A DNA stretch of 53,611 nt, counting the filler, from Asterionella formosa (Eukaryota): the NCBI GenBank assembly GCA_002256025.1. It is 4 parts of 4 records of this genome, joined end to end, with 100 filler letters (N's around TTAATTAATTAA, not from the genome) between each part and the next. Parts side by side here need not be neighbours in the genome. Positions count along the whole stretch, not along the records: positions 40,290 to 53,611 come from NKIB01006791.1; 3 more parts are not named here. One strand, given 5' to 3'. Below are positions 4,018-53,611 of the stretch, piece after piece. Under the pieces are notes generated by a model. It made no database searches, was not told the DNA's origin, and saw only the letters and a list, made by a program, of their open reading frames with translations. Within the stretch, counting starts at the first letter, position 1. The number at the start of each line of letters is the position of its first letter. The position numbers were made by a program, and so were the translations under genes.

Positions 4018-4974
4018 ATGACGCAGCGGCCGATGCTACGGAAGCTGACTCTGCTTATGGTAATCTGGAGGCATCAGGGAACAGACGCCTTCAGCCCATT
4101 TGCAGGAAGAACTGCCCAAGTGCATGCAAGATTTTCTATTCGGCCAACACTTGATTCGGTTGATTACAGATCAAAAGCATCATCCTTGCAGCTTAAGCCG
4201 ATAGGAGATGACAATGAATCCGGCGATGATGATCAATGGGAGGATAAGAAGAAAGTAGACGAACTTGGTTTCTTTGACTCTATCAGAACGTGGTTCGGGT
4301 CAGATGAGGGAAGAGATGATATCCAAACCTACACATGGAGTCTGGCATTTGCTCTTCTTCTTCGATTTTTGATTATTGAACCTCGATACATTCCAAGTCT
4401 CTCCATGTATCCAACCTTTGATGTTGGCGACCAGCTGGCAGTGGAAAAAGTTACAAAAAGGATTCGCCCCTTCAGTCGAAAGGAAGTAGTGGTTTTCAAT
4501 CCTCCACAATCCTTCAGAGAGATAATGGAAGGTCAATTTGGAGGTGATCCGACCGGTAAAAGTAGGGAAGCTTTGATCAAGCGCATCGTTGCTATTGAGG
4601 TAAGATACTTTTTGTGTGCTTTTTCGGTTACATGCCGTTGCTTTTTTTTACCACCTTTTCAATTCAAGGAGGTACTGCTGCTCTTGACTCACTTTTCGAT
4701 TGAAACCTTCCAACAGGGTGACACTGTAAGAGTGACCAAGGGGAGCCTTTATATCAATGGAGAAAGGCAAGATGAACCCTTCACAGCTGAGAAGCCCGAG
4801 TACGAGTTTGGCCCGGTGACAGTACCATTGGGAAGTGTACTTGTGCTGGGCGATAACCGAAACCATAGTCTTGATGGACACATTTGGGGTTTTTTGCCAA
4901 AGGAAAATGTTATTGGACGAGCTGTCTTTATCTACTGGCCTCCATGGCGAATGGGTAACAGCGACTTATTCTAG
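4018..4974 (+). CDS. Plastid (thylakoidal) signal peptidase I, S26A family; exons 4018-4599 and 4717-4974
   Basis: Motifs IPSLSMYPTF (catalytic Ser), LIKRIVA (catalytic Lys) and LGDNRNHSLDGH. Signal peptide followed by TDAF-SPF, an ASAFAP-like cleavage site. GT..AG intron 4600-4716 (117 bp) restores VAIE|GDTV. Confidence 0.92.
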   Translation: MTQRPMLRKLTLLMVIWRHQGTDAFSPFAGRTAQVHARFSIRPTLDSVDYRSKASSLQLKPIGDDNESGDDDQWEDKKKVDELGFFDSIRTWFGSDEGRDDIQTYTWSLAFALLLRFLIIEPRYIPSLSMYPTFDVGDQLAVEKVTKRIRPFSRKEVVVFNPPQSFREIMEGQFGGDPTGKSREALIKRIVAIEVRYFLCAFSVTCRCFFLPPFQFKEVLLLLTHFSIETFQQGDTVRVTKGSLYINGERQDEPFTAEKPEYEFGPVTVPLGSVLVLGDNRNHSLDGHIWGFLPKENVIGRAVFIYWPPWRMGNSDLF

Positions 4975-5849: not shown

Positions 5850-6333
5850 GGTGAGGAATATATTTGATGGACAAAAGTGATCCAAAGAAGCACTGGCGTC
5901 AGTTTGGGCAGGCAGGGATCCTATACATAGTAGGGGTAAACGATTAGTATTCCAACGAGCAAGATTATACCGAAGTAAAGATACACCTCAAGTTGTAAAC
6001 CCTAGCCTTGTGGCTCCGGGCAAGTATTTTTTAGAAAAAACTTGGGTGAAATAACGAAATGCACACCCACTGTTTCGGAGAAAACACACCGAAAAGCGCG
6101 CCAAAAACCGAAAATCAGCCAGCCAAAGAAACGTTTTCAATTCTTGGTTAGCAATTTGTGTCATGTTCTCAACGCTGAAAAGGAATATCAAATAATCTCG
6201 ATTTCACGATGAGGTGGTCCTGAATCTGGACTCTGCCATTAGACATTGGCTTTTATCGACAACGTAATTTGAAGCAGGTATCTGGTAATTATTACAACTA
6301 CCTTTCAGATGCAAGGAAGGTAAGATCAATGGA
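5850..6333. promoter_or_regulatory. Putative bidirectional promoter between Lhcf (minus) and the RTEL1-like gene (plus)
   Basis: 484 bp between divergent start codons. Initiator-like TCACTT on the minus strand at ~5875-5880, just upstream of the Lhcf ATG. Positional inference only. Confidence 0.45.
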
Positions 6334-9300
6334 ATGAAGGCAATCAGACGAACAAAAGATCACGATGGAAAACCAACAGGCAACTCGAGATCTGCTGCAG
6401 CGTCGAGAATACCGACTGGTTCATCACAAGCGACCGCCGTTGATATCAAAGGCACGACAATTCACTTCCCCTTTCAGCCGTACAAATGCCAAGTGGATTA
6501 CATGGAGAAGGTATTGGACGCCTTGAACAATTCGGAAAACGCCTTGCTAGAATCCCCCACTGGAACAGGGAAGACCCTATGCCTCCTCTGTTCTACTTTG
6601 GCATGGCAACGAGAACAAGGACGAGCAATACTTCAAGCGACGCAAGTGACTCAGCATACTTCTGGTGAATCCAACAAAGCTCCCACAGTTCCTACAATAA
6701 TCTATGCTTCCAGAACCCATTCTCAATTATCTCAAGTAGTACGAGAGCTTCGCAATACTCGCTATCGGCCAAAGCATGCGGTGCTTGGTTCCCGCCAGCA
6801 AATGTGTGTTCATCCAAAAGTTAAAACCGCAACAGCCACTGCTGCAGATATTAATCATGATTGCAACCGCCTTGGGAAGGACCGGAAATGCAGATTCAGG
6901 AACAACCTAGATGGATTTAAGGCACCAAGCAATGAGCATGGAGCAAGTCATGATACGCAGCCAGTTTTGGACATGGAAGATTTGGTTTCCATGGGAGAAT
7001 CCTCAAAAGTTTGCCCTTTCTACTACACACGATCCTTGGTAGAGGATGCTGAATTGATTCTGGTGCCGTACAACTATCTCTTTGATAAGGATGCAAGAGA
7101 GTCCACAATGGCTGAGGTGGAATGGGATAATGCAATCGTCATTTTTGATGAAGCTCACAACTTGGAGAGTTTCGCTAGTGAATCTGCATCCTTTGATCTA
7201 TCGAGCGTCGATATTGGTGTCTGTATAATGGAATGCACAAAGGTGGGAAATTACTTACAAGCTCAACCAGAATTGCAAGATCGGGTAAGTTTAGACAATC
7301 TCATCCGTTTAAAGGCTCTGTTTCTCAATTTCGAGGAGTACATTCTACAAAAGATAAGGAGTGACAGAAATGTCTTCAGTGGTGACTTTATGATAGAAAT
7401 ATTCAAGGAAGGAGCATCCATTAATCATGCAAATCACTCTATCTTTGTTAACGAGGTCTGCAAAGTCTCTGACTTACTTATGGACATGCGTTCAAGTAGT
7501 AGCAAAGGCCCAACAAAATTGGAGTTTTTTGTTGGCTGTGTCAAAAGAGTCTTCGGGGAAATCTCAGAAGGTCGATGCATGGCAAAATCTCGAGCATATC
7601 GAGTACACATAACCTCCAAACCCCCTGGCAATAACGGAATGGGCCGTGTCATATCCTATTGGTGCTTTGCGCCGTCGTTGGCCATGCAAGAGCTTTCCAA
7701 TTTGAATATTCGATCCATTATAGTAACGTCAGGTACGCTGTCGCCATTGCAGAGCTATGGCATGGAACTTGGTTTGAACTTCAAGGAGCAATTAGAGAAC
7801 CCGCATATTATTTCTGATAATCAGATACACGTTCGCGTGGTGGGGCAAGGAGTCAGCGGGAAGAATTTGTCGAGTTCCTATGAGCGACGAAGTGATAGCG
7901 AATATGTCACCGAGCTTGGCAACACCTTGGTCGCCCTTGCTCGAATCGTCCCTGCTGGAATGCTTGTCTTCTTTCCAAGTTACAGTGTCATGGACTCGTG
8001 CGTTGAAGGATGGGGAGGACCAGCTTCGCAACGAAAGAATTTCGATAAGAACAAGAAAGAACAAAACAAGTTTTTTGCGGCGAGACAGAGTAAGAAAGGA
8101 AGCAGTGGTCAGTTTTCTTTTCCGTTCGCTCCGAACTACTATAATTCGTCCGATCCCAACGGGAGTATGACACCGTGGAAGCGGTTGCTCTGCCAAAAGT
8201 CTATAATCCTCGAACCCAAATCCACCACAGACCTTCCTGAGGCCATCGCAGACTTTCATCGCTACCTTAATCAATCGAAGTCGACTGGCTGTATTTTGAT
8301 GGGTGTATGTCGAGGAAAGATCAGTGAAGGAATTGATTTTGCTCACGATATGTGTCGTGCCGTTATCGTCACCGGCCTGCCATTTGCTCCATTCTTGGAT
8401 CCAAAGGTAAAGCTGAAACGCGAATACCTTGATGGCATCAGGGCTTTTCAGAGTCTCAAGGCTTCGAATGATGGTGGATTCGGAGGAGGCGACGGTAGTG
8501 CGCTCAGTGCGTCTATTTCAATGTCTGGAGCGGAATGGTATTCGCAGCAAGCACATCGTGCCGTCAACCAAGCGATCGGTCGAGTCATCCGTAATAAGCT
8601 CGATTATGGCGCTGTACTATTGCTCGATTCAAGATTCGGAGATCCAAAAAACACTGATGGGCTAAGTTTGTGGGTAAGAACGCGCGTACAACATGACCAT
8701 GGGTTTGGAAAAGCTATCGGGGGTCTTGTAAAGTTCTACAAAGACGCGAAGTGTACCGTTGATGAGAGAGAAAAGCTCGCCAACGCCGCATCTCGAGCGC
8801 CAAGCGGCATCCGCTTGGCATACGAAGACGATCTGTTTCCCACCACGGTGAAGAATCCTACTGAAGCATTTGAAGCATCAGTGACCAAGATTACCGTAGT
8901 CCAAATGGCTGCGGTCAGCAACAAGGAGATCAACCGAACGGACGACCGTGTCGCATCCAAACGAGGAGTCACAACCGATGACGTCGTTGAAAACGGGTAT
9001 GTTCCCTCAAATCGAGTAATTGTTAGCTATGATCTCCGCGACGCGGATGGTCGTGAACAATCCACGGAAGATCTGCCGCACTCGACCGTGTCAAGGGCGG
9101 AACCGTTGAATCCGGTAGGGTTAGGTGCTCTCTACTCGGCAAAAGCACCATCGTCAACCCGAAATTTATCTTCAGGTAGAAGAAAACAGGATGCAAGAGG
9201 GGGTGGAACCAGTGCTTGGGAGTCGCTCCAATCATCGGCTGCATCATTCGACTCTCAGCGGGATTGCAATACAGCTGAAAAGGGTTCGATAAGGGAACTG

Positions 9301-10765
9301 GATCCATATACGAATGCCCAGGAGTTAGCTCCTCAGCGAACTGTAACAAACGCCAAAGCTTTTTTCGACTTGGTGAAAGGCGCATTATCGTCGGAAGACT
9401 TCGGATCGATTCGCAAAGCCATTGTCGAAATGAAGGCACATGGTGATAAGAAAGATGTTAGATCTTATCTAAGATCAGCAAGTGAAATTATTTCACTGAT
9501 TGTTAAGCAGGATAATTTCGAGACAAGGCAGGGTTCCTCGGAAGCAGGAATGCTCTCTCTTTTTTTTTCATTGCTCCCGAAAGCCTACCGCGAAGATGCT
9601 CAGAAAATTGGCGTCAAGAAGCAACTGGTAATGTCAAATTTCGGTCAAAGTTGCACCTCATTCATCAGAAACATCGAAGAAAGAAAGAAACTGGTCATCG
9701 AAGTCCGTTTGCTGTTGAATGCCATCTATTGCAGCACCGAAGACACACCTGGGGTAATGGCCAGATCGTCGTTTGCTCAAATATGCAAACCTGTAGTTGC
9801 ACTGATCCTTGAGGTGGAAATCGATGCCAACGTCAAAGTAGCGTCCACGAAACAGTTGGTCGAATCCTTCCGGTGGCTACTCCCCTTGTCACTCCATGGA
9901 ACACTAGATGGCATCCTTCGAGATGTTCAGGCGGCCAAGAACATGAAACGAATGAAGGCGGCCGACAAAGCTAGAACTGGTGAAGGTGTAGTCAACACTG
10001 CTAGATTCGTGGTTCCATCAGCGAAGAAACCTCGGCAAGAGGACAAGAAGAATGAAATGCCCGAGGAAATTGAAAATCGACATATGCTAGTAGCTGGATT
10101 AAAGATGGCTCAAGATATTCAGCGGCAGAAACGCGAGCAACTTGAAGCAAGTAAACTTGCAACCAAGAGTCAATATGGGCAGTTGAAGCGAAAGGTAGAT
10201 CTAGCTTTGGCGTCAGTCTCCACGAGCAGTCTCCCAAGCCTAAACCGAGATAAGCTTGCGAATAGTCTCAAGGTCGCTGGCACTGACCATTTTGTGAAAA
10301 ATGTCAGACCTATACCGTCAGAGTCAAAATTAGTTGGCTACAACGCCCCGGAAGGACTAACTTGTCTTGTTTGTGACAGCACGATACGTTTGGTAAGCTA
10401 GTTTAGGGTTATTGAGAAGTCAACAGGAGCCCATGATGTTGTTGTCACGTACAATGTTTTGATATACTTGCGCTTTGACCTAACACTATGTGTTCTCCCG
10501 GTTTCGCAAGCCTTTCATGGCAGATTGCAGACATCTGGCTTGCGCAAGCTGCTGGTCACAATGGCTACAGAAATCATCTACGTGCCCAAAATGCAGATCA
10601 ACTGTAACATCAGGACAGTTAACAAGAGTGGTCTTCAATACACAATTAGACGGATCAAAAGTCCCTACTCTTTCGCAGCTCTGCAAAACGACTCCATCAA
10701 CGAACGACGACGAGCAATCAAGTGATGACGAGCTCGAAGTTATCGGAAGTCAGTATCTAGAATAG
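6334..10765 (+). CDS. RTEL1: RTEL1-like Fe-S DEAH helicase (XPD/RAD3 family) with harmonin-N-like region and C-terminal C3HC4 RING; exons 6334-10392 and 10511-10765
   Basis: Q motif FPFQPYKCQ, Walker A ESPTGTGKT, YASRTHSQLSQ, Fe-S cysteines (MCVHP..DC..KC..CPFY), FDEAHN, CRGKISEGIDF and QAIGRVIR. Intron 10393-10510 joins CLVC..|PFMADCRHLACASC..CPKC into one RING. RTEL1 is preferred over FANCJ from the helical C-terminal region (AKAFFDLVKGALSSEDF). Confidence 0.85.
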
Positions 10766-13336: not shown

Positions 13337-13436
13337 NNNNNNNNNNNNNNNNNNNNNNNNNNNNNNNNNNNNNNNNNNNNTTAATTAATTAANNNNNNNN
13401 NNNNNNNNNNNNNNNNNNNNNNNNNNNNNNNNNNNN
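13337..13436. other. Artificial assembly spacer
   Basis: N44-TTAATTAATTAA-N44, 100 nt, stops in all six frames. Confidence 0.98.
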
Positions 13437-14972: not shown

Positions 14973-16968
14973 TTAGCCGCTGAGTTGAGTAGTACTGCTG
15001 CTAATACTACCATACAGGTTGTTGCCCCCTGGTTGGATAGGATCACCCCAAATTGGAGTGAGACACTGGCTATTTCCAGATGTAGTCAAAGTGCTCAACT
15101 CGGATGCAATTGAGGACACGAGGGGAACATGAATCCCCAATTCGTCCTCGGGCATCAACGGATAACGACTTTCCTTCCACCCGCCTCCACGAGATGGCGT
15201 GAACTTTATAACTGTGTGCATTGGGACTTCAATAGACATGCACTTCTCGACTGGCGAGGCACGAAAATAAGCGATTAGGGTTTGCAAGACGCTCACATGG
15301 CTCACAACCAAGACGGGTGAGACTTGCTGCTCCACATCAATAATAACAGTTTCTAACCGATTGATTACATCACGATAGCACTCTCCACCGGGAAATCTGC
15401 AATGACATGTGGTCAGCAACACAGCAATACTAAAATGAACAACATATGCACTCAACAATTGCATTACCATACCTTGTAAAAAAAGGATCTTGTTCTAGCT
15501 TGGCGTACCAGTTTGAGTCCACTTCCTTGATTTCACCGAGCTCCATTCCTGCATAATCACCCTTATCGAGGGGATTGAGATTTGAAAGAGTGTCGATCGG
15601 AAACCTATGATAGTCCCAGTCCACGGTCTCGACAGCTCTTGGCATGGTACTGGTGAAAATCCTGCAAGGAAAAGGTAACTCTTTTCCGTCAATACCAACT
15701 TCGTTCTTGAAGGATGACAGTCCTGTTCTGGAAGTTCCTGTATGGAGGCTGCGATGGTACATCGATTCTACAGCTGCCCGCTCCATCATAAATTCATTGC
15801 CCTCCATCGCGATGAAGTTCCAAAGTTCATTTCGAAACGACTGGCCAGTTGGACCAAGGCTATTGTTCCTGTTCGAAAGCTTTCTTGTGTGCACTGTCAA
15901 ATCCATGTCTCCAACTTTAGCAACATAGTCTTCTTCATCTGTTTTCACATTACTTGGCACCTTGCCGGGTCTACAAAGGAATACAGGCCTGGTACCTACA
16001 TTCCAAGCCATTAATGCAGGCACAATGAGTTTGGCCATTCGACCGTAGATATGATTGACCATGAGTTTCGTCGAAAGGTTGAAGATTTTGATGTACGACT
16101 GACTTTCGTCAGTTATTGTTTCATACTGCTCTTCGTACTTTTGAACGCGAACCATGAGATCTGCCATTGCGTCGTCTATGTTCATATCTTTGTAATCCGG
16201 ACTACTTTCCACTTTGAATTTGTAGTTTTCGCGCAGCAAATCGATATCATCACAAATAGACTCAACAAAAACCACACCTGTTGGCTTTCCCGCACGTTTC
16301 GAGGGATGCGTACACTGATCTAAGATCCAAGCTCGTCTCTTCGCCGTAGAATTGGTTGCATCAAAAATTGCAATCCGGTCCGAATTATGCTGCCCTTCCC
16401 TGGACCAATCCGCATTCGAGGCAGATGTCGAAACGCTTTCAGCGTCTTCGTCTTCTCCATCCAGCCATTTCAGCATATCTATAAGTGCCATTTCTGCAAC
16501 TTTCTCCCTCAAAGTCGCTGCACTTACGTTGTTTGCGTCGAAAAAGTCGGCGTTGCAGGCTCCACTTTCGGCTCGCCCATCATCTGGAGACTTTGTGGCT
16601 AGCTCCGCTGCTGCTTCTCTTCGATATTTTCCCACATTAAAGACCTTGGTTTGTATTGTTCTCCATGTTAGAAAGGACAGAAGTTTGCGGGCAACAAAGC
16701 TTTTCCCCCTGGCTGGCAGACCAACCAAGGCAATAACCAGTCTTTTGGAATTACCAGTCAGGTTGTTCCTCTGAATCAAAAGGGCAGAGGATCAGATTCG
16801 AATACAGGGCAACATGCTTCATTGAGCATTAGCAACGTATCTTGTGACCAAATCTGATGGGGAGCCCAAACTCACCTTGGTTAGCTTTCGAAGCGTCAAC
16901 GGTGTCACTTGTGCTGCTTCTTCGTTTCCCGCTGTGTAGTAGGAGCTATTGGCGTCTCCGGTTGCCAT
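14973..16968 (-). CDS. 6-phosphofructo-2-kinase/fructose-2,6-bisphosphatase family protein; exons 16968-16876, 16770-15473, 15396-14973
   Basis: Kinase P-loop LVGLPARGKS, FNVGKYRR, IFDATNST, VFVESICDD. Phosphatase-like half TSTMPRAVET, R|FPGGECYRD, LVVSH. Introns 16771-16875 and 15397-15472 have GT-AG ends and preserve the frame. Confidence 0.92.
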
Positions 16969-18484: not shown

Positions 18485-20046
18485 TCACTTCTTGGCAGAG
18501 TTCATAGCAAGAGAATATAGGAGCGTTCCAAAGATGGCAATAGACGATCCAACAATGCTTCCTGTGCTCATTGGAGTTTTGAAGGCAATGACGGAAGCAA
18601 CGATGATGACAACACGCTTAATGGTGTTTCCAACAGCATGGGTGACGGGATTGACCTATGGAAGGAAAGTGATTGGATGTGTTAGAAATAGACACAAACA
18701 ATTTCAAAGAAATTTGAAGTATTTATGGCAAAACACATACCTTTCCGAGGGCAAGGAAGGCAACCTCGTTGTACGCATAGTAAGAAGCACCACCAAGTGC
18801 AAGAAGTGTTGAAAGGGACTTGGTAGTGTACTGGCCTGCCTTAACAAGGTCACCAAAAGCCTTGAACATGCCGGTACCCTCAATTGCAAGAGCTGTAGGG
18901 ATGAGCATCAAGGCGGACATTGCAGTCAAGACAGCGTAAAGGTTCTGGGCATCAAGGTTTTCGCCGATCTTCTTTCCAGACATCGTTTTCTTGGAAAGAA
19001 CGCCGCGGGCCGCAGAGGAAACATTAGAGAGCATTGCAGCTGCGAGAGCTAGAACCGTAAATGAGAGTTCCTTCATGGAGGCGATAGCAACTCCTCCAAT
19101 AATTGGGAGAAGAGTCAAGTAAACTTTAGTGGGGAGGATCTGTCCAAGGAGAAGGGCATTAAGTCCACAGGTAACGACAGGCTCCGAAGCCTTGACAATG
19201 TGAGCAAACGACACGGCTCCTGCACCGAGAGCAATGACAGCTCCGACGTGGACACCAGTATGGCAAAGGGCAATAGGGATAAGGGTTTTGATGTCATCCA
19301 TACTGAGCTTGGGTGCCTTGCGAAGGCCAGTGAGCCACAAGGGGACAAAGTAAAAAACTCCAGCAACCATCTGAATGGTCGCGACAGTCCAAGGGAAGGC
19401 AAGCGCGTTCAAGGATTGCTTGTTATAAATATTGTAGGCAATGTTGAACAGGTACCAAAGGGCGAAATACATGCCGACTTGAAGAGTCTCGCCCAAACCG
19501 CCCTTTGGTTCATCAGCTTTTGCAGCAACTGCACCTCCAGCAGAAGAAAGGGCAAGAGAAGTAGAACTCTTCACGTCACTCCTAAGAAAATGGAAGAGCA
19601 AGGTTAAGAAAGCATGAGAAAACTTATATTCTTTGTTTAATACTGAGATAATATGAATAGAATCTAGGAAGTTGTTGGTCGGATCTTCTGTTCGAGAATC
19701 GAGAACACAAAACCATCTTCCGGTCAGGTCTCGCTTGCACTTGTTATAGACGGTACTGAACAAAGAAAAATTGCAATTCAGAGGCGTTGAAACAAATGCT
19801 AAGGCATTCATGTTTTACTTTTGCTCCTCAGTTTGTACAACAACGCTACACGTCAACAGATTCGCCCAATACGCGCCGATGGACTGACATCTCCGAAGGA
19901 ACTCACTTTGAAAAAGGAAGGCGAGGTCCGTTCTTGACGACATTCGTGCTGACAATACTCTTGACAGCAGGACCAGGAATGAAGGCACTGGCGGTAACAC
20001 CAGTGGCGGCCAAGGCCAAGACGAGTAAAGCTTTCTTCATCATCAT
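18485..20046 (-). CDS. TPT: Plastid triose-phosphate/phosphate translocator (TPT family); exons 20046-19907, 19581-18741, 18655-18485, possible micro-exon 19755-19741
   Basis: Presequence MMMKKALLVLALAATGVTASAFIP. Motifs YFALWYLFNIAYNIYNK, AVSFAHIVKASEP and GK|VNPVTHAVGNTIKRVVII. GT-AG introns keep the frame. Confidence 0.93.
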
Positions 20047-26761: not shown

Positions 26762-26861
26762 NNNNNNNNNNNNNNNNNNNNNNNNNNNNNNNNNNNNNNN
26801 NNNNNTTAATTAATTAANNNNNNNNNNNNNNNNNNNNNNNNNNNNNNNNNNNNNNNNNNNN
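26762..26861. other. Artificial assembly spacer
   Basis: N44-TTAATTAATTAA-N44. Confidence 0.98.
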
Positions 26862-40189: not shown

Positions 40190-40289
40190 NNNNNNNNNNN
40201 NNNNNNNNNNNNNNNNNNNNNNNNNNNNNNNNNTTAATTAATTAANNNNNNNNNNNNNNNNNNNNNNNNNNNNNNNNNNNNNNNNNNNN
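40190..40289. other. Artificial assembly spacer
   Basis: N44-TTAATTAATTAA-N44. Confidence 0.98.
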
Positions 40290-41340
40290 AACATTAACTA
40301 ATTCAGTCTCGCGTTCAAAATTCATTGTGAAAACTTCACATGAAACAGTTAAAACTTCACATGAAACCGTTAAAAGTAATCTTTTTTACGTGAAGAGTGG
40401 CATTAATGCATGTGAAGTACCACATAATTAACACTCATACGTAGACGAAATTTCGAAAAATGGCGTATTTCGCGGCTTAGATGAGGCTCAGCAAGCAAGG
40501 AAAGTGTCTTCTTGATGGCACCCATGTTGGTGATTCCATTCATCCCAGCACAGAGGACTATACTTTCCTGAGTGTTTGCGGTAAATTTCTAGTTAACAGC
40601 ACCCTGAAAATTTTTCAGTATCTGGATGAAGATACTGATATTCCTGAACAATTCATTAACACAACTACCTATGAAGAAAATTTTTGATTGGCGGATCAGC
40701 AAAGGGACGCAATACCCTTAATGGAAACAGTTCATGCCAAGTCAATGGGTTGACGTTTTGCCGGAATGATGAAACACTGAAGTACTGCAGAGAGCTTATT
40801 GTTGATATTGAACAACAGAACGCAATCGAAAAGGAACAAGTATCAAAAAGTGAGGGTAAGCCCGACATTGAAGGTAGGCAAGAAGTTGACAACACATGAC
40901 TGGGATAATTACAATCAAGAACATAACAAGTTTGTAAGGAATGATCTCATACCTTCGGATACATCCAAGATCGTAAGTTCTACCAACCTCCTTGACTTTG
41001 AAGAAGAGGATAAGGAACTTGGCGATAGTAGTTGGCGGCCATTCAAACATTTCACAAAATAAAAAGATGTTATCTTATAAATAGTAATTAATAGACATTC
41101 CTTATCTGAACCTTCAATCACAAATTTCACAAATTAGTCCATCCTGTTCCATCATGTTGCACTAAGAACGACAAAAACTTTTGACTACGACCACAACAGT
41201 GCCTCCAACCAAAAACCCAGAAACTGAACAAGAACTTGGATGGTCTGAATGGCCGGAGTCACTTAGAAAAGATGTGGAAAGTAGTATGAGCATAAACTAA
41301 GTTAGATTACTAGCACCAACATCTATGAATAAAATTTCCG

Positions 41341-41664
41341 CATTCCCATCTTTCCCTTGTTTCAATACCTGGTCGTAACATGACATGGCTGCAGTAAAAC
41401 TGTACCTATTACTACGCTGGTACTGTGAAACTGCAGTTTTGCCATACCAGCATTCCCTTCTTCCCCTTGTCTCAAAACCCGGTCAGAACATGACGTGGCT
41501 ACAGTGAAACTATACCTATTACTACGCTGGTACTGTGAAACTGTAGGTTTGCCCTACCAGCATTCCCTTCTCTCAATACCTGGTCCGGAACATGACGTGT
41601 GTGGCTACAGTGAAACTGTACCTATTACTACGCTGGTACTATGAAACTGTAGCTTTGCGCTACC
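41341..41664. repeat. Tandem repeat, 3 units of ~110 bp
   Basis: CATTCCC..AACATGAC.TGGCT.CAGT.AAACT.TACCTATTACTACGCTGGTACT.TGAAACTG starts at 41341, 41451 and 41561. Confidence 0.93.
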
Positions 41665-41729
41665 AATCTAATGTCTATTACTGAGTATGTTGGTGCTGCG
41701 TGACGAAAGCTATAACTGGTGAACAACGT

Positions 41730-42845
41730 GAATTGGTTTCTTCTGTTGTCTACCATATACCCAAGTTCCATGGAATGACTCATTATCCTCATTTGATTAA
41801 ATAAATTTGGAACACCTATCAACTTCTTTGGTGGTTTCCTGGAATCATTCTTGAAAGAGAAATTAAAACGGCCAAGTAAACGAGTCAATGGTCATACACA
41901 TCGTCTCCTACATGATATATTATTGAGGAGTTATGAAGGAAGACAATATTCACTCGCCAGGAAAGTTCTCTTCCCCAGTGTTTACGCCATGTCACTTTTG
42001 GTGAGGGACGGAGGTACTGATACAGTTCAATCAGATGAATCTGAATTTGAAGATACAAATTCGATAAATACTAGAAGGGAAGCAGAGGCATCCATTGTTG
42101 TGAAACCCAAACAATTACCTTTCTCAGCGGAGAAAGACCAACGTGGAATTTGTTACATTTCCGGCGGTATTAAACAACTGTGTACACAACGAAAACGCTC
42201 AGATGGGACAGTATACTACCGCTTGTTTCACCCAGACAACGAACATGGTTAACCTGCCGTTCAGAACTTTGTAAATTCTGCGGTACAGCGGTGCAAGGAC
42301 AAAAATTCTACTGGAACTACGTCTGTAGAGATAGATCGGATCAATTTCTTTTATCCAAAGATGACGGTACGAAAAGAATTTTAAGATGTAATCCAAAATG
42401 GAACAAACAGGACAAGAGTCTTCATCAATCAAATTCTTGGTTTGATTGGGTTGAAGTGAATTGGGAAAGTCGAAATGGGAAAAATTACAGTGTACCAGCA
42501 AAATTGCTTTTATAGGGTAACGTCGTTTATTCAGATGGAACTGAAACACTTGTTGCATCTATATGTTCTTTGAGGAGTACCACCGTCATGCCAGCCCATC
42601 ATCACATGTTTTTTGCTACAGGTGATTACATTTGTGATGATTAGACTGGATTAAGCGTTGTTGAGCATAACAACATTCTTTCCACAGAATCTGTAGTCCC
42701 AGCTTCAGCACCAGCTACAATCAGTAAATGTATGAGTACACGAGAAACCGTTGAAGCCATGGAAAATACAGATTATTATATTGCATTACCACCACGAAAT
42801 CAATGGGAATGGATTGGTTGAGATATTCCTTTAAGTACAGAGAAG
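41730..42845 (+). pseudogene. C-terminal half of a Plavaka/CACTA-like transposase
   Basis: HIPKFHGMTHYPHLI..KFGTPINFFGGFLESFLKEKLKRPSKRVN matches the Plavaka 'PKxH..HY..IxxFG...E' block. ILRCNPKW..SWFDWVEVNW..VPAKLL follows. Several stops and frameshifts. Confidence 0.75.
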
Positions 42846-42918
42846 TAGCACTAATCGTCACAATACAAATTATTACGAATATACTTCAACATTTAATAAC
42901 TGCCTCCGAATTCATAGT

Positions 42919-45305
42919 TTACTTATCTTTATGATTTTCCTTTTTTGGAGAACCTGAAGATGAAAATGAACTGTCATCATCCAATGATTCTTCCGAAGAT
43001 TTCAAGAAACTCTTGAAATATTTGTATAGCATATCATGCTGGCTGTCATTCAGGAGAACAGCATACCTGCTCACTTTCTGCATGCCCTCAGCAACAACGA
43101 CAGCACGTTTGTATTCTTTTTCAAAATTCAAGGCTTCTTTATTACCATGCCAATGGTAAGATTCTACGGGATGATGAACCATTTTACTAAGATACGTCAG
43201 TTCAGTTGTACTTAACATCGGAGATAACTCGATTTCAGGATTGAACTCCATTGCTGCAACTTTGTCACAACATGAACCCACAATGATGTTGAGAACATAT
43301 ACCATAACTGCATCTTCAACATCATTTTCTGGCTTACCAGGAAATGACCATCCATTTGATTTTCACCCTTAAATTTCATTTTCAGAAATGTATCCCAACC
43401 ATCCTTTGTTAAACGTGACTCACTTCGTTTCCCCATAAAATCAGTTTCTCCCCTGTATCCTAGTTGTAGTAGTAATTCCATAAACTTCACAATTGTAAAG
43501 GGACCACATGACCATCCACCATTCTTTGGTTGGTTGGCTGGAAAATCTTTGAATCTGAATGTTTTGCTATAAAACATTTCAGAGGGCCTTTCCCACGGAA
43601 ACCACCGCCCACCTTAAATTGAGGTTCACCGTCGGTGTAACCTCGGATTTTTGGTATCTCACTGAATGTTTTCAGAAAACTCTCTCGACATTCTGATCGA
43701 GCCTTCTTCGTGCCAGATTTCCATTTTTCGAACTTGGTTTTGAATTTGACCATAGCTTTGGAGGGAATAATTTCTTTGTTAATATCTACACCAGGGCAAA
43801 TACGATATTTGCGTGCAATCTCGTGAATGCATTTCAAATGACTTTTCAAACTAATTCCATGTTCAGGATCACCTACTTCAACGTTGCCTTCATTTAGATC
43901 AAAACAATATAGAACATAATGTTGATGATGTCGTGTTTGTAAATAAATCACAATAAGGAATTCAATGGAGGGTTGGAGATAAAAACTGTTAGATGGATAA
44001 GGACGTTCAGTATTCCAGTCATTTCTGTCTTGAGATTCAACAATTACATGAATGTTTGAGGGATGCAGTTCATGAACAATGACCTTGACAATGGCGGTCA
44101 CAATTTCATTATCCCAATATGCACAATTGTCCAGTTCAATACGATTGTCCCTGTACTGCTTCTCTGACAATTTAAGGGAATACTCATTCCTGCAATATTG
44201 ACGTACTTCTGAGGTTGGCCGAGAGTATGTATTGTAGTAAAGCTTATGTGCCTCCGGACCCAATGGAAGTGGGAACCGGAAAGGTGAATCAAATACTTGG
44301 CAATTAGCGCAGAATGGTCAGGACATGCTTTCCACAAAAAACAAGAGGGTGAAACACTGTTAAGGTGAACGTTGAAACATTCCAATTTGTCACCATATCC
44401 TGAAAAAGCAGCTGCTACCTTCCCCTTTATCGATTTTTTCGATACAAGTAATTGATGTATTTCTTCACTTCTCCTCGCTCTTTCGCATGGGTATTTATGC
44501 ATTCCTTCATCAAATAATTTCAATAATGATTTATCCTTACAGGATAAATCATTTATCTCCTTGACCTGCTCAATTACTGTCCCAGTGACTGCAACAGTTT
44601 CGGAAATCTTTGGTAAGTAGTCATGAATTACATCCAGACTGGCGACCATGTCCTGTTTCAATATTTCCAACTCCTTACTGGATAAATGGGACAAATCACT
44701 TTCCTCCTCGACCTGTTTTTTAAAATTTACTTTCCCAATCACTCCTACAGTTTCGGAACTCTTTGGTGACAAGTCATGGACTGCTTCTTCCGGATTGGCA
44801 ACCATGTCTGGAGTTGCCTTTAATTTACATTTTGCATTTGCTTTGGAAGGGGGAGATTTTATATCAATTCTATCAGATTCGATTCTCTCAATTAGACGCT
44901 CTGAGGAAGTAGAAACAAGATCTCCCATGGGCATACAAGCAACACGATCTTTACTTCTTGGAATGGTATTGGGAGAAGATGAACTGGCATCAATTATTTC
45001 GTTTTCACTCGTCTGTGTCAATGCATAAACGGAGAATACACATCGTCGGTGATCTTTATTTGGAACGACAGATATGACTAATTCCATCGGCTCATCAGGA
45101 AAAATAGTTTCTCAATTTAGGCGATGCTTCTCAAATGTGGTCGTAATGGTGCACAGAAGCTTGTTCCTTTTTTCTTCTGTATCAATACCAGCACCAACAA
45201 TATTAGTAAAAATACAGGGATCATTTGAAACGCCCCAATAACAACAGAGAAGTTTATCAACATCATTGGACTCATTTCGACAACCATTGTTGCTGCACGA
45301 AATTG
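42919..45305 (-). pseudogene. Near full-length Ulp1/C48-like cysteine protease gene, split by about three frameshifts
   Basis: Overlapping ORFs 44098-45087, 43487-44263, 43212-43577 and 42919-43305. Catalytic-type motifs occur in order: HYVL, GDP, QPKNGGWSCGPF. Confidence 0.7.
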
Positions 45306-46821
45306 GAATCAGCTATTGATTGAATAATGGTTCTGGTACCCTCATAAATATTTTAGACTTCTTCGGAGTGGCGAGAACATATGGGTGGGACAAGCTACAC
45401 TACGTATATATGAGCTATATAAATGAAGCAGTCACTTTGTGGAAAGTATGTGTGTGGCAATGGGGTTAGGCTGTCCTATGTTGTGCCTCTGATGTTGCCG
45501 ATAAAGAGATTTCTTAAAACAATGGGATAGTGCAATGTTATTAAGCAAAGTTTCGATTGTTATTTCGAACTTCCTGCTATTCAAGGTTCATGTGATGCTA
45601 CTATTTCCTGAATGAAATGAAGCTGCTTCCTGGTTAGTGATGTCGCGGCTCTAATTCTGCAGCATACAAACGTGCTCGCCAATAGCTAGGCAATGAGAAT
45701 GGAAGACCCATGATTAAGGCCATGAGCAACAAACTGCACCGCCATCTGGTCCATCTTCACTTTAATCCACATCTCATCTTGAAGAATAGATTCGACATAC
45801 GGATCAATGTTCGCAATGGGCGAATTATAATCAAAAGGTACTATCTTCTTGATTTCGGTTGGAATTGGAATCGGGTATGGCCTTCAATGCATTGTTCTCC
45901 AATTCTGTCGTATAAATTGACCAAAGCTTTTGATTTCGATTAACAAACAAACAATCAAACTTCGCCAGCATAAGCAATTCCCCATCAATATCGAGACCTC
46001 ATCATTCGTTGTAAGACTGAGATCATCGTCGTCCCCGCAAGAGGAAGGTAGCTTGCAAGGGATTGTTCAACAAACATACATGGCTTGCTTGTAAGAAATT
46101 CGATTACTGATATGCAAATGGAGAGATAATGACGAATACTACTGGTACAAGAATTGGATCAAAGCATGAACCGGTAGAGCATTCAAATCGGAATGGCAAC
46201 AAGGAACGCACCGTTGTTGCACAGAATTCATTCTGATAGCATCGTCGGGTACAAGGTTTACATACACGTAAGGTGATCTGTGTAAAGTCATAACCTTCGC
46301 TAAAACAAAAATTGATCAAAGAGCAACAGCTATTGATCAATCAAACAACGTATCAATATATCAAAACATGTGGTTAGCAGATAAGTTTTGATAACTAATA
46401 TATATTACTTCTATCTATGCGTAACCTGACTTGTGTAAGCAAATAATCTGACAAACAAATTTGATTGACCACACCAACACGGTCATTGATATATCAAAAT
46501 TATCATCAACATAACACAACATTTGATCTATATATCAGCAATTTGGATTAACCGATTAGATTTGGTAACTAATATATATGAGTTCATATATACGCATAAC
46601 CTAACGTGTGTATGCTAGTAACCTAAAGTACAAATTTGATTGATCATACAGACATGGCCGTTGATATATCAAAATTATCATCAACATATAAAAATATTTG
46701 AATAATCAATCAGTTTTTAACCTATGCTGAGTAAAACGTTAGATCTAATGGAACATCTATTCACAGACGCTGTCCACTACTAACCAATCATAAATGCCAG
46801 TCTATTCATCCAAAACAATCA

Positions 46822-47452
46822 ATGGCAGAGCATATTAGACAGAGTATAAAACCTCCCAAATATAAAGAATACCTTACTGCTAAATACGGCAGGGAAAGGG
46901 TGTGCACTACTAGTGAGACATTTGTTAGCAGCGCAGACGCGCAGACAATGATCACCATATATATACATACACAGATGGTTAGCAAAAGGAGTCCGGCAAC
47001 ACATGATATATCAGGGCATTGGAACTTGTCTGATATGTGGAGACAAGAGACAAACGAACACACATGATGGTATGTAAGCACCCCAAATATCAATGTTATC
47101 GAGAACTACGCCTCACAGAAATGACAACGAAGGTACAGAACTCAAAGGAAAGCAAATGCATATCACCAGTATGCATAGAAAGGAGGAGTTCCAACTGTGT
47201 TTTGCGTCATGCACTTCAGCGAAAACAAAATGTCGAATACAACAGGCAATACAACAACAAAATAAAATGGGAGAAATTCTGACACCAAGAGGGTATCTTA
47301 GTATCCAACAGAAAAAGTTGAGAGGATCAACCGTGTGGGATGAAGATTGGAGGAGGAAAAAAGACAAGACTCCCATGCAAGTGACAGGTGGACGAATCGC
47401 CAAAGTTCTGCACATGCTGCTGCTTTGCACCGTCCCAGAAACCAAAGCGTGA
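46822..47452 (+). mobile_element. 3' fragment of a non-LTR retrotransposon (LINE) ORF with CCHC zinc knuckle
   Basis: Across frameshifts it reads YKEYLTAKYG, IHRWLAKG..CLICGD.ET..HMMVC and IQQAIQQQNKMG..RGYLS. This fits the W-L-x-x-G...C-x2-C...E-T-x-x-H-x3-C pattern of LINE C-termini. Confidence 0.55.
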
Positions 47453-48639
47453 TGTTTGTCGCCATTTTAATTTGGAGGATTGTTGTGTGTGAATGTGTCT
47501 GCATTTTAGGGCGTTGCGAGAGTCTGGGTTGGTGGTATCAAATTCTTTGTTTGCTGACTATTATGTTCGTTTTATTGGTCGAAATAACGAGAAAAAATTG
47601 AGCAAAAACTCCAAAATAATCTTGCAGCACAAACTAGTAGTAGTTTTCTGTTAAAGGATTGGTGAACCTTACTAACAAAAGATCGACCCAATTATAAATG
47701 GTTCTGGACTAGAAAAACCCGTGTCCTCAGGATCTAGCTCATCTACATTAAAGGCATTCTCTCATTGGATAGCGACAAAGAATAATACTCTTAGGAGGTT
47801 TCTCTAGCTGAAATGGTTGAAAGTAATCTTTTTCACGTGACTGGGCCATCAATGCTGCGCTCGTGTATGGTATGATTTGGACCAGAGTTACCACATTTGG
47901 TCAACACGAACACAAATATTTGGGTTATGAGTGCAATTTTTTTGTTATAATACACATGACAGAGAGCGCACCCATTATCTCCTACAGGAAGATTGGAGGA
48001 TGTGAATTCTTGCTGTCATTCTTAATGAAAGAATTTTGAATGTAGCATCAACAATTCTTCTCACTTTTTCATTTCATTTTGAAGAAAGCATGTGAAAGCA
48101 AATGATCTAGTCAAGAATTCTTGTTGCTACCGGAAGTGAAGTGAAGGTATCGAAGACAATAAAGTGCTCATTTTAGGATGCACAATGGAAAGAATGTGTG
48201 ACTAGAAGCATGAACATATATTATGAAATTGTAATCCATGTTATTAGATTTGTATTTACTATGATTGTTCGAACATGATAATTTTTGGACCAATGGCAGG
48301 AGTTTCTTAGATCAGTAGAAATAAACATTAGGTCGGAAGCGAAAATATGATTTGAACAAAGCATTCTAAGAGCATAATTGATTTGATAGAACCAATTCTA
48401 TTTTAGATAATAGATTGGAAAATCATTTGATAATAAAGGAAGAGACCTGTGTTAACAACAAAGCCATTGTTTGATCAAATAGTTTGCAAATGAACTGATA
48501 TATACATATATAATCAATTATAATAAAGGCAGCAGTTCACTCCTTTTTGGAACATGAAAGATCTAAAACATATTTTAACTATATGGGTATAATCATTTAC
48601 ATCCATAAATTATTGATCAATATTTTTTATGTATGCTGA

Positions 48640-49900
48640 TCAATAACAAAAAGATACATCATACTGTGATAATTTTGGGGCAGTCGATAATATAGAAAAA
48701 GTGATAGGCCTAAAACTTCTTTCATTTATAGAAGTTTGTATCTCCATCAATGGGACTGGCACTAGAAGACACACCGTTTCCCACGGGATTGCTTTGTTGG
48801 TTCCTCTTATCCGTAATAAGCAACCATAGGACTCAACCCCTTCTTGTAGAGAGCCATCTGTTCCGGCCCAAAAAGAAAGAGGGCCTAAGAAATGACTCTC
48901 CATCCAGATTAAGCCTGACATGGTACAATAACCTTTGCAGATTTATGGGGAGCAAAGTTATATATGTTGGAAATGTCGAGGCAGATCTCGCAGGATCCGC
49001 AACCTTTGGGACTAATTTGTTTCGAAATCATGTCATCCTCCAGGCTAATTTAGTTCTAACGTTTCTCGGACGAGCATTCTTTGGCGGACAAGGGTGTCAA
49101 GTAACAGACCCCTCAGGCTGTGGATTGGTAGCTAGCCTGGAAGTGGCCACATGATCATGAAGTACCCATCTCCCAAAGGAGCTCTGCTACAAAATTATTT
49201 GTTCTGAGGAGGAAAACAAAATGTCCAATGCTGCAGGGGTGTACCTGTATATTTTCCAAGTTCTTTGGTGTAGAAAAAGCATGTCAGTAGAGTGTGATTT
49301 TAATACACCTTTCAGAAGAACCAGGCCAGGAGAATGGCGATTTTCGATCCTTCATCTTGATTCAATGAAAATCTCAGGTCATAGCCTAGTTGCTTCTGCT
49401 GAGACAATATCTGCAAGGTACATACTGCAACAGCCAGTTTTCATGGAACATCTTGTATTCACTGATTTTCGTTTCCATGAAGACCTCCATGATGAGGCAA
49501 TCGTGTTGACATTGAAGCTGAAGTGTCCAGGAATCAATTGTTAACATACTAACATCTTTCTTTGCTAGGAAGTGACAAACATTTGTGATCCATGCTTGCG
49601 TCACAAACAAGAGCGCTGTGGCCAGGCAGAGTAGAGCAATATGTCCTCGGACCGCCCAGATTCTAATTGAGTTGCTCGAACAGAGATTTTTATCAGAGAT
49701 ACTGTCATCCACAGCATACAGATGATGAATTAGATGAGTGATGCCCCTAAAGCCCTGTTCTACTATGGTATTATCACCCATGTTGAGGCCAACTATAGGT
49801 GTTGGGAGATAGTAGTACCCTGCCATTGTTTTTCTTTATTTTGGCATTTCAATTGCTGGGTTTGACCTGCATGCGACATGGAAAGCCAAGCTTCCATTGT
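48640..49900 (-). mobile_element. Degraded LINE ORF fragment (post-RT region plus RNase H-like start)
   Basis: VEQG..ITHLIHHL, AWITNVCHFL, LQLQCQHDCLIMEVF, MYLADIVSAEA, then AGTDGSLQEG.ESYG..PIDGD (RNase H-like). Many stops. Confidence 0.55.
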
Positions 49901-50221
49901 GGGCTGGGATAAAAGAATTGTTCTTTGAGTTCTTGAAACTTCAACAAGGTTAATTTTAAAAATGAGTTGCAAATTAAAAGTGTTGATTTACAAGTATATA
50001 TTGTGTTTGGAATGAAAAAATCATGTGATGTAATTTGAATTTTGCTCCTATTAATGTTTCCTGCTTCTCAAGTCAAAAAAATAATAAATTCAAAGTGTTA
50101 CTAATATTTTTCCAAAACCAATAAATATTGTGTTGGGAACAAATGGGATTAAGTAATAGCCTTGGAAATTCTCTTCCCATGAGAAATGACATTCAAAATG
50201 CAGAAAGGAATCAAATAGCAT

Positions 50222-53200
50222 TCACACATATTCACCTGCAAACTCATTCTTCACCCATTTGATAATACCAGCATGGTCACAAACAAGGACCAGATGTTTC
50301 TTCCATTCAGAATGCTTGTCTTTCTGAGCCTTTTTAGCAATTAATTCATATGATGCTCCAACAATTTCAGTTAGCTTTTCCCTATCCAATTCAAGAATAG
50401 GAGTATGTTGAGTTGCACTTCTCCCTAAAAGGAGTTCATCAGTCCTTGCGATGAGCTCTTTTGTAAGTGGATCACTTATCATATCCATGACAAACTTCTC
50501 AATTGATTCGATTGGACCATGCAGACCAGTGGTAACTTTACTAGCAGCAGCTGCAACTTTAAGGAGGAATATAGCACATTTTATGGCAGGTGCAACACTT
50601 GTCACCCATTGCTTGGTAACCTTGGTAGTAATACATGCTTCTGTTACAACATTAAATGAATGCTGACAAACAAAGAATATCTGCACTTCAGTTTTCACCA
50701 TGCTTCTTGGCCACATCCAGATTGGGGCCCCTTTATTACTGGATGGTACTATGTAGACAATTCTGGGACACACTTCCTTTACTCCAGCAGCAAAAATCGC
50801 AAGGGCCTTTGTCATTCGTGACTCTTGATGAGAGATCTTCTTCAGAATCTCTTGTTGATACCGATAAAGTTTTGACCATTTGTCATGTTCGATTTGTTCC
50901 TTCAGGTGAAGTTTATACAGATTGCTGGTCAAGATTTGGCTCTTGTATATGTCCTCATTAGAAAATAGCCTGTCACAACCAAGGACTGGGCACTGAATGG
51001 TCATCTCACCAAGAAGCTTATGAACATGATTCTCAAAACAATGTTTGCATGTGAAATGATCTTTGCAAATGGAAACAGAAGAAGAAAATTTGGCGCACAA
51101 GACACACTGTTCAGTGCTTTCATTCAAGCTTGCTGTTCCGGTTTTTCCACAGGATGCTGTGGGGCTTCCAGCAATATGATATGTTTGACTTACAAGTCGA
51201 CCCATTTCTTCAACCAATTCAATAGTCTTTGGCCTCTTCGTGCGCTTAGTCTGAATGCAACGAATGGCTAATGAGCACACAGAGGACAAAATTCCATCAT
51301 CCCATTCATCTGCAAGAGGATCAGCATCCTCTTCCAATGAGGACCCTTCGCACTCTTCAATGTAGCGATCATAGAAATCTCCCATCTGCCCATTTTGGAG
51401 GCAGCCTGTCACAAGCTCAATCATGACAATGCCAAACGAGTAAACATCACAGCATGCTTCAAATGTCTTTTTCCCATGCGAATACCATGGACATATGTAG
51501 CCAAGCGTCCCAAAGACTCCACCATTTGATGCATTCTGAAGTGACATCGGAATCGCACTGGTTGAAATTGAGTCATCCACAGGCACAAACTTGCCTAGGC
51601 CACAATCAATCAGTTTGGCAGTATAGTTCTGTTGAAGGCAGATATTAGCCGACTTGATGTCGCGATGAAACAGAATGAAGTTGTCACTTTTCTCAGTATG
51701 GAGGCAGTGGATGGCACGAATAATGTCAAACATGATTCGAAGTCGGATCTCACTCGAGAGGCTTGCTCTGCTTCGTTCACTTGCATAAAATTTATCAAGA
51801 GAACCCTTGGATGTAAACTCATACACCAGGTATTGAGCAGGCGTATCAGAGGACAAATAATAGCCATACAAAGATACGATATGGGGGTGTCGGAACCTCT
51901 TTAATGCCTGAAACAGTAAAAGAGAAGAATGAGAAACATAAAGTCTTGTCAAGACATGATGCACTATTTGATACTACACATGAGCTCACCTCCAATTCAA
52001 TTTTAAAACTCTTGCTGATTTCCTGTAACGTATCTTTCTCAACAGCAACATTGAAAAGAAGACATTTAACAGCAAAATACCGATTGTCAAACTTGCCTTT
52101 GTAGACAGCACCAAAAGCTCCTTCACCTAGTTTCAAGGCTTCATCAAAGTTGTTTGTACAACTATTAATGAATTCTACAGGAAGCTCAATTGGTATAGAA
52201 TTCACATTGTCCATAACTGCCTTCATTTTCGACCGGCCTATGGAAATGGGATCAGTGGAACTGCTACCGCTTGGTGTTGGAGTTGTTGGGTAAGAGAGAC
52301 CCATTGTATTTGTATTTGATGCTGTTGCTGTTGCTGTTACTTTTATTGTTGTTTTTGTTGTTGAGTTTGGCTGACTTGTGATGGCTGATTGTTCATGGGC
52401 CTTCTTTGCATCAACAAGTCTTTGAATTTCATTTATTAGATTGGCACCAATTGAGTTATCCTTGGATGAATGAGTCTTCATCGCAGAAATAATCGTTGTG
52501 ATACCTCCTGCTTCAGCAATCGTCACCTTGTTGTTGTCATTATTTTCAGCCAAGTTCTGAAGTGCTCCACAACCAAAGTATTGAACATTAGCATTGGCTG
52601 AATGAGTCTTCATCGCAGACAGAATCGTAGTGATACCACCTGCTTCAACAATCATCTCCTTGTTGTTTTCATTCATAGCCAAGTTCTGAAGTGCTCCACA
52701 ACCATAGTCTTGCACATCCGCATTAGATGAATGATTCTTCATCGCAGACAGAATCATAGTGATCCCACCTCCTTCAGAAATCATCACCTTGTTGTTGTCA
52801 TTATTCTCAGCCAAATTCTGAAGTGCTCCACAACCGTTTTGTTGAACATTTGCAATGAATGAATGAGTCTTCATCGCAAAGAGAATCGTAGTGATACCTC
52901 CTGCTTCAGCAATCGTCACCTGGTTGTTTTCATTCACAGCCAAGATATTAAGTGCTGCACAACAAACATCTTGAACATAAGCAATGGATGAATGATTCTT
53001 CATTGAAGACAGAATCGTAGTGATGCCTCCAGCTTCGGCAATCGTCACCTTGTTGTTGTCGTTGTTCTCAGCCAAGTTCTGAAGTACTCCACAACCACAG
53101 TCTTGCAAATTAGCATTGGATGAATGATTCTTCATCGCAGAAAGAATCGTAGTGATGCCTCCTGCTTAAGCAATCGTCACCTTGTTGTTGTCATTATTCC

Positions 53201-53611
53201 CAGCCAAGTTCTGAAGTGCTCCACAACCATTTTGTTGAACATTTGCAATGGATGAATGATTCTTCATTGCAGACAAAATCGTAGTGATACCTCCTGCTTC
53301 AGCAATCGCAACCTTGTCGTTGTCATTATTCCCAGCCAAGTTCCGAAGTACTCCACAACCAAAGTGCTGAACCTTGGCATTTGATGAATGAGTCTTCATC
53401 GCAGACAGAATCGTAGTTATACCTCCTGCTTCAGAAATCGTCACCTGGTTGTTGTCATTATTCCCAACCAAGTTTTTAAGTGCCCCACAACCAAAGTCTT
53501 GCACATCTACATTGGATAAGTGAGTGTTCATGGCAGACAGAATCGTAGTTATACCTCCTGCTTCAGCAATGGTCACCCTGTTGTTTTCATTCAAAGCCAA
53601 GTTCTGAAGTG
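50222..53611 (-). CDS. ARM-repeat / IRAK-Pelle-like kinase / RING-like / Roco-COR-like multidomain protein; 5' end missing; one in-frame TAA at 53166-53168; exons >53611-51990 and 51907-50222
   Basis: At least 9 ARM-like repeats of 43-44 aa. Kinase motifs CTNNFDEALKLGEGAFGAVYKG, FAVK, FKIELE|ALKRFRHPHIVSLYG, HRDIKSAN, DCGLGK, GTLGY, DVYSFGIVMIELVTG. Zn finger CVLC..C.DH..CKHC..CPVLGC. Tail CPRIVYIVP..FFVCQHS..WVTSVAP..WV. The 82-bp GT-AG intron 51908-51989 is frame-consistent. Confidence 0.85.
52470..53611 (-). repeat. Coding tandem repeat, 129/132-bp units (ARM repeats), at least 9 copies
   Basis: AATCGTAGTGATACCTCCTGCTTCAGCAATCG recurs at 129-132 bp spacing (e.g. ~52888, 53017, 53149, 53281). 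The contig ends inside the array. Confidence 0.97.

Follow-up and report, generated by a model that had tools for sequence, protein, structure and literature searches.

At the far end of a 53,611-nucleotide stretch of Asterionella formosa DNA (hereafter "the window"; four parts of assembly GCA_002256025.1, of which positions 40,290 to 53,611 come from NKIB01006791.1) lies a minus-strand gene whose predicted product joins a repeat array, a protein kinase, a zinc finger, and a conserved C-terminal module. Our preferred reading, to which we give a probability of about 0.6, is that the locus is a member of a fast-evolving family, known to date from diatoms and from metagenomes of fresh and marine waters, of soluble proteins in which phosphorylation and ubiquitin signalling would be coupled, and that this particular copy bears a nonsense codon. 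The family layout runs from a variable N-terminal solenoid and a flexible linker, through an RD kinase with a DCG...CPx segment, to a finger of the RBR RING1 type, a long helix, and an alpha/beta module.

Gene structure and kinase

The gene has two exons, and its 5' end lies beyond the end of the window. Exon 1 (51990-53611, continuing off the window) encodes the repeats, the linker, and the kinase N-lobe in one frame of 540 in-window codons. Exon 2 (50222-51907, 561 residues) supplies the rest of the kinase, the RING1-like finger, the long helix, and the C-terminal module, and ends in the stop codon at 50222-50224. Between them is an intron of 82 nt (51908-51989; GT..AG, phase 0), located between kinase helix C and strand 4.

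Because a single frame contains both the ARM units and the first part of the kinase (Gly loop, Lys, and helix C), joining repeats to kinase needs no splicing at all. The intron splits the kinase itself: positions 5-49 of the Pfam Pkinase profile match exon 1 (residues 344-383, the N-lobe), and positions 52-259 match exon 2 (residues 2-233, 3.6e-23). When spliced in silico, the product aligns without a break over the junction with 14 of 14 full-length relatives. P0290, a continuous open reading frame (ORF) of 759 aa that is 67% identical, also matches residue for residue over the junction. In the metagenome contig L001 this codon is likewise the site of an intron, 80 nt long and identical in its first eight bases.

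The two-exon gene on the minus strand is real. An earlier examination of the window (the sequence-only reading) had described one spliced frame linking all of the listed domains. The linkage stands; the frame is broken by a TAA codon at 53166-53168, so that the observation is confirmed in part, and the interpretation placed on it, of an intracellular immune receptor with a Roco-like tail, is likewise supported in part.

The kinase domain (51191-52172, interrupted by the intron) appears to be of the IRAK/RLK/Pelle type, RLK standing for receptor-like kinase. Its catalytic core is complete in the window protein, with the Gly loop, the Lys, the helix-C Glu, the HRD motif, the Asn, and the DFG Asp all present. 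Retention of K, HRD, N, and D had been claimed earlier, and these residues are also conserved in the family: among 86 family kinases the HRD His is found in all 86, the HRD Asp in 84, and the catalytic Asn in 85, and the DFG Asp is kept in 83/85 and the Lys in 18/22.

Two departures from the canonical motifs had been pointed out, DCG in place of DFG and CPW in place of APE. Both are present; what had been missed is that neither is peculiar to this copy. DCG occurs in 72 of the 86 family kinases, and a Cys replaces the APE Ala in 72/86, so these are family signatures and not marks of decay. The APE Glu position is variable (Glu in 21, Trp in 18, and Asp in 10). Together, DCG and CPx place one cysteine at each end of an activation segment of ~40 residues, and a redox or disulfide switch acting through them is conceivable.

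Comparison of exon 2 by sequence with the PDB supports a kinase nearest to IRAK and to plant RLKs and receptor-like cytoplasmic kinases (RLCKs), the class being read from best hits, not from a tree. The 60 rows listed include Pto (2.8e-20), IRAK1 (1.7e-16), and IRAK4 (about 2.5e-16). The other names in these rows are SYMRK, RIPK, PBL2, RKS1, BIK1, FERONIA, CERK1, LysM kinases, SOBIR1, BRI1, and BAK1, together with a few rows labelled simply as kinase or as hypothetical protein; another kinase family is named in two rows only, both of CTR1 (7.1e-13 and 3.5e-12). A search with the full-length P0290 kinase agrees with this, two relatives carry the automatic JGI name "interleukin-1 receptor-associated kinase 4," and the top database matches beyond the family are plant RLKs. 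The IRAK/RLK likeness proposed by the sequence-only reading thus holds for both the window exon and P0290. A death domain, as expected of IRAK and Pelle proper, gave no match in the in-window protein (E≤0.1) or in the L001 ORF (E≤0.05).

The IRAK/Pelle and plant RLK/RLCK kinases (Pto, PBL2, BIK1, SYMRK, CERK1, FERONIA, and BRI1) are the closest solved kinases by sequence, and they have in common with the diatom kinase an RD catalytic loop and a subdomain IX motif. The differences are considerable. The diatom protein has neither a death domain nor a membrane helix nor an ectodomain; most family members have DCG for DFG and CPx for APE; and a RING1 finger and an unnamed module are fused behind the kinase.

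Repeats, linker, and an in-frame stop

Upstream of the kinase lies a tandem array of 132-nt units, each coding for 43-44 aa, which occupies 52462-53611 with 8.8 copies in the window and 82% matches. The Pfam profiles Arm (2.1e-13) and ARM_LRRK2 (6.1e-19) match 51990-53165, and Arm matches again on 53169-53609 (2.6e-07). Unit length and profiles agree with tandem ARM repeats of ~42 residues, which is what the repeat domain had been taken for.

Array and kinase are connected by a Thr/Ser-rich linker of 97 aa (52173-52463; 14% Thr, 13% Ser). No hydrophobic 19-residue window falls in the linker on the Kyte-Doolittle scale; the six top windows of the protein all lie in folded domains, with a maximum of 1.72. 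The membrane helix that separates the ligand-binding domain from the kinase in receptor-like kinases is thus lacking here, which supports a cytosolic protein, as suggested before. At linker position 52319, contigs of a lake DNA run and of an RNA run carry a 6-nt in-frame insertion within a microsatellite coding for Thr/Ala; it is not seen in the run with the largest word share.

The array contains the feature that most affects how this copy should be viewed, and it was overlooked in the sequence-only reading. At 53166-53168 the frame has a TAA as the first codon of an ARM unit. In 7/7 of the other complete units listed this codon is GAA (Glu), so the TAA represents a single-base nonsense change. 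As assembled, then, the copy may be a pseudogene, a null allele, or the product of an error, or it may be translated from an internal Met.

That the copy is non-functional, a pseudogene or null allele whose remaining frame was inactivated recently, is quite possible. A single-base change from GAA to TAA inside an otherwise regular repeat is what one would expect, the 60%-identical ARM-kinase locus L001 has a seven-unit array without an internal stop, and the gene adjoins ~30 kb of AT-rich sequence in which 0/20 scanned open frames have a Pfam match. Against this, 953 codons remain open past the TAA, with all catalytic and zinc-binding residues intact, and a Met 11 codons 3' of the TAA could serve as the start of a shorter protein. 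A sequencing or assembly error would also account for the codon, and none of the contigs listed bridges it with 31 letters on each side.

Reads also bear on whether the gene is expressed. The stretch is present in DNA runs and in poly-A or cDNA metatranscriptomes of lake water, and contigs from the RNA libraries of two samples cover 50666-51211 as well as parts of the 3' end, the linker, and the ARM array. Matches to several parts of the gene argue against a dead copy, and this coverage is a weak sign of transcription. Please note that the very large summed read depths on the ARM array and the kinase core are not copy numbers, and that the bin 51870-51987, without cover in RNA run X8, is not counted as evidence.

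Finger, helix, and C-terminal module

The 322 residues behind the kinase (the tail) were modelled with AlphaFold2 on an 80-sequence alignment, with a mean pLDDT of 86.1. The model contains a C3HC4 zinc finger of predicted RBR RING1 fold (50927-51121, tail residues 24-88), the ligand codons of which span 50975-51106. It is followed by a single long helix of 46 residues (50789-50926, tail residues 89-134), which corresponds to the coiled segment noted in the sequence-only reading.

A VIA-wide search matched tail residues 24-110 to RBR RING1 domains; RBR proteins, with the finger as the aligned part, make up 10 of the top 12 rows, the others being one other RING and one designed helical protein. 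HOIL-1L (Z 8.2) and RNF144A (Z 7.8, rmsd 3.5, 85 aligned) lead, ahead of ARIH2 (Z 7.7), RING1 of HOIP (Z 7.1), and parkin (Z 5.9-6.5). The RBR RING1 alignments cover 80-111 residues at Z 5.9-8.2, values of 6-8 being within the range that the tool grades as common. Foldseek places the same RBR entries on top, weakly (E 0.15-1.4). The likeness of the Cys/His finger to an RBR RING1, proposed from the sequence, is thus borne out by the predicted fold.

The ligand pattern also fits RING1, four residues separating its last two ligands. Among 74-81 family sequences, 7/8 of the zinc-ligand positions are kept in 84-99%, and the third ligand, C42, in only 50-80%. What follows the finger is different from an RBR ligase. 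RING1 of these enzymes acts together with IBR and RING2; here, no IBR match was found at E≤0.1, and in the tail model the place of IBR and of RING2 (Rcat, which bears the catalytic Cys) is taken by a helix, followed by a non-zinc alpha/beta module. Since both are absent, ligase activity is not implied, and RING1 alone would at most recruit an E2. In short, HOIL-1L, RNF144A, ARIH2, HOIP, and parkin resemble the diatom protein in the predicted RING1 fold and the C3HC4 pattern, and differ from it in what comes behind the finger.

The C-terminal alpha/beta module (50225-50788) comprises the last 188 residues. When modelled alone from 91 sequences it reaches pLDDT 85.2 and pTM 0.78, and its predicted fold consists of a small sheet, a helical bundle, and a final hairpin. 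Conservation is high, in counts that take in some members of the same 90% clusters: a Pro in 148/148 sequences, a Cys in 148/149, a Phe in 140/149, a Trp in 137/148, another Pro in 145/149, and a second Trp in 138/142. The codon of the near-invariant Cys is at 50666-50668. The His two residues past it is kept in only 100/149, which weakens a Cys-His catalytic reading. UBC/E2-like, PTP-loop, and caspase-like readings of the Cys were dropped on unfit motif spacing and the lack of a fold match.

No search gave the module a name. Foldseek against the PDB returned at best E 0.54 with a probability of 0.07; VIA-wide gave a best Z of 7.1, confined to a helical hairpin, and a second VIA search a best Z of 5.3; the best BFVD match (E 0.11) is unconvincing; the ESM Atlas search produced nothing usable. 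The PADLOC and NCBIfam profiles had no match on the module, and the precomputed Pfam lists had none on the tail of relatives that carry the whole tail. In the PDB comparison of exon 2 the best stretches of the rows listed are all kinase (query residues 2-238), none being in the tail, and the word index, searched at "longer" lengths, returned no match to the tail. A two-copy complex model of tail residues 85-322 scored 0.00; with its own fold uncertain and the alignment unused, it has no bearing either way. Judged from the model and these searches, the module is a conserved domain without a name, a Pfam family, or a recognised fold.

The sequence-only reading had likened this tail to the C-terminal-of-Roc (COR) region of Roco proteins while finding no Roc GTPase. 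The second point holds: neither Roc nor Ras matches the in-window protein, the N-terminus beyond 53611 lying outside the window, and neither matches the N-terminus of L001. The first finds no support. No Roc or COR Pfam profile matches the in-window protein at E≤0.1, and no Roco or LRRK chain is among the 50 VIA-wide rows listed; a distant likeness to COR may escape such fold searches.

Family, rival explanations, and surroundings

A search with the 322-aa tail recovered 167 cluster representatives (at 50% identity) at E≤1e-3, of which 57 reach E≤1e-10 and 5 reach E≤1e-30. From the 150 hits listed, the 78 of at least 400 aa were scanned for architecture. A kinase is found in 58 of them, in six of these together with ANK and in one with LRR_6; many begin inside the kinase, as expected from exon-level ORF calls. 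The other 20 have no kinase: five have ANK only, eleven have no Pfam family, and single cases have C2 (P0147), U-box and Sel1 (P0220), RING and two Deltex-C (P0269), or a Ras-like GTPase and ANK (P0243, with two copies of the module).

The N-termini of the full-length relatives are equally varied, with ANK in P0002, P0004, P0010, and P0040, LRR_6 (of the RI type) in P0007 and P0030, and Kelch in P0026. L001 again combines ARM repeats and a kinase (263-1957), and P0290 has a 390-residue N-terminal region without a Pfam match. The kinases of L001 and P0290 are 81-90% identical, yet their N-termini are unrelated (seven ARM units versus the unnamed region), which suggests that domains were swapped recently. 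Full-length relatives with a species name come only from Fragilaria crotonensis and Epithemia clementina, and one family member is an MMETSP transcript; the gene is thus of a diatom type, as had been assumed. With 167 relatives by tail cluster and swapped sensor domains, it is not the single-copy housekeeping gene that would have spoken against the earlier interpretation.

How might such a protein work? In our preferred reading, of coupled phosphorylation and ubiquitin signalling, the solenoid would bind a protein or ligand, and this binding would control how the long activation segment is autophosphorylated. A ubiquitin-charged E2 would be recruited by the RING1 finger, and the C-terminal module would dock partners, or accept or position ubiquitin. 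No other element of the family is as constant as this module, which in other proteins also neighbours a U-box and a RING-Deltex pair. A single polypeptide would in this way couple phosphorylation to ubiquitin signalling; the present gene, as assembled, would be a decaying copy or null allele, or one expressed only from the internal start.

It is important to remember what weighs against this proposal. The kinase class depends on best hits, and with its in-frame TAA this copy may fail to yield the full protein. The structural matches of the finger are of a common grade, and its two RBR partners are both absent. At least 6/8 RING1 ligands occur in 57/95 module-bearing proteins (those with at least 135 upstream residues), and in the other 38/95 the finger is missing or degenerate. 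The incomplete conservation of the His near the module Cys counts here as well. RNA libraries can also contain DNA, and no RNA contig listed joins across the intron, although this last we count as no evidence by itself.

A more specific proposal is that the protein is an intracellular immune receptor, in which the repeats sense pathogen molecules or modified self and the core of kinase, RING1, and tail triggers defence. An immune role is plausible from the evolutionary behaviour of the family; as the explanation of this locus, we regard it as somewhat unlikely. N-terminal domains are swapped on a conserved core, even between closely similar kinases. The family is large and divergent, its near-identical tandem ARM units are able to expand and contract, and a nonsense copy is expected under birth-and-death evolution. 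The kinase type is in use in animal and plant immunity, and in brown algae a role as immune receptors has been proposed for LRR/TPR and ROCO families whose repeats are shuffled (PMC3341825; PMC11378527). On the other side, the mean pN/pS of 0.54 among 8 ARM units does not indicate diversifying selection, none of the known immune signalling domains, NB-ARC, TIR, and death among them, gave a match, and modular repeat-kinases are also used in non-immune signalling.

A bolder version would make the module an undescribed signalling domain, either a ubiquitin-accepting Cys-relay or a homotypic adaptor, and the whole family a diatom innate-immune receptor repertoire built on an IRAK-like kinase. The near-invariant Cys of the module sits behind E2-recruiting domains, namely RING1 here and U-box or RING-Deltex elsewhere. 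We think this combination unlikely.

Derivation from a Roco protein that lost its Roc GTPase and kept a COR-like dimerisation tail is very improbable. In its favour, ARM_LRRK2 is the top ARM profile, and one distant relative, P0243, does have an N-terminal small GTPase. That GTPase scores as Ras (112 bits versus 48 bits for Roc), lies >900 residues from the modules, and comes without a COR match. Besides the negative profile searches in the window protein, 91 members were matched to 53 families (E≤0.05), and the 25 commonest of these do not include COR. The COR of Roco proteins stands before their kinase (PMC11378527), whereas here the tail comes after it. Equally hard to credit is an artefact of the gene model, with an ARM-repeat gene and an independent kinase gene read as one, for which only the missing RNA contig across the intron could be cited, against the single exon-1 frame of array, linker, and N-lobe, the intron joining profile position 49 to 52 inside the kinase, the 14/14 relatives, and the same structure in L001.

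Several known systems share parts of the layout. LRRK2 and other Roco proteins also place an ARM, ANK, or LRR solenoid before a kinase of the tyrosine kinase-like (TKL) group, with ARM_LRRK2 the best ARM profile here, and differ in having the Roc and COR that find no match; best hits put the diatom kinase closer to IRAK/RLK than to the rest of the TKL group. Plant KEG contains a RING, a kinase, ankyrin repeats, and HERC2-like repeats. By description it is likewise a cytosolic protein that combines solenoid repeats with a kinase and a RING-type finger; its RING comes first, it is not known to have a counterpart of the C-terminal module, and the diatom finger is instead of the RBR-RING1 type. 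KEG is described as a RING-type E3 (PMC3697954). The brown-alga LRR/TPR-ROCO and NB-ARC candidates, also from stramenopiles, similarly show shuffled repeats on a conserved core (PMC3341825; PMC11378527). Unlike theirs, which is Roc-COR or NB-ARC, the core of the diatom family is kinase, RING1, and a new module, and it swaps whole domain types where the brown-alga candidates swap LRR exons. In the collection of papers that we searched, no description of the architecture of ARM, kinase, RING1, and module was found.

Diatoms are major primary producers, and little is known of how they perceive viruses, chytrids, oomycetes, and bacteria. For intracellular sensing in these organisms the family supplies candidates that can be tested, as well as a natural fusion of a kinase with a putative E2-binding finger. 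The conserved domain of ~190 residues, nameless and of unrecognised fold, is a direct target for structural work and biochemistry. A 2010 kinome study reports no IRAK-like kinase in Thalassiosira pseudonana (PMC3019232); the present family, of soluble modular proteins, shows that other diatoms do have kinases resembling IRAK/RLK.

The rest of the window provides some context. Its first 20 kb hold ordinary nuclear genes, for an S26 signal peptidase (3862-4971, plus strand), a 6-phosphofructo-2-kinase (15433-16791, minus strand), and a triose-phosphate transporter (18726-19814, minus strand), along with a gene for an RTEL1-like DEAD_2 helicase with an open frame of 1370 aa (6289-10398, plus strand). 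From about 20000 to 50200 the sequence is AT-rich (GC 0.36-0.40, versus 0.41-0.48 in the first 20 kb), and a Pfam scan of 20 open frames there, each at least 120 aa long, gave no match. The kinase gene borders this gene-poor region. Finally, there are six blocks of exactly 44 N (13337-13380, 13393-13436, 26762-26805, 26818-26861, 40190-40233, and 40246-40289). They form three pairs 13,425 bases apart, a regularity that suggests masking and not assembly gaps.

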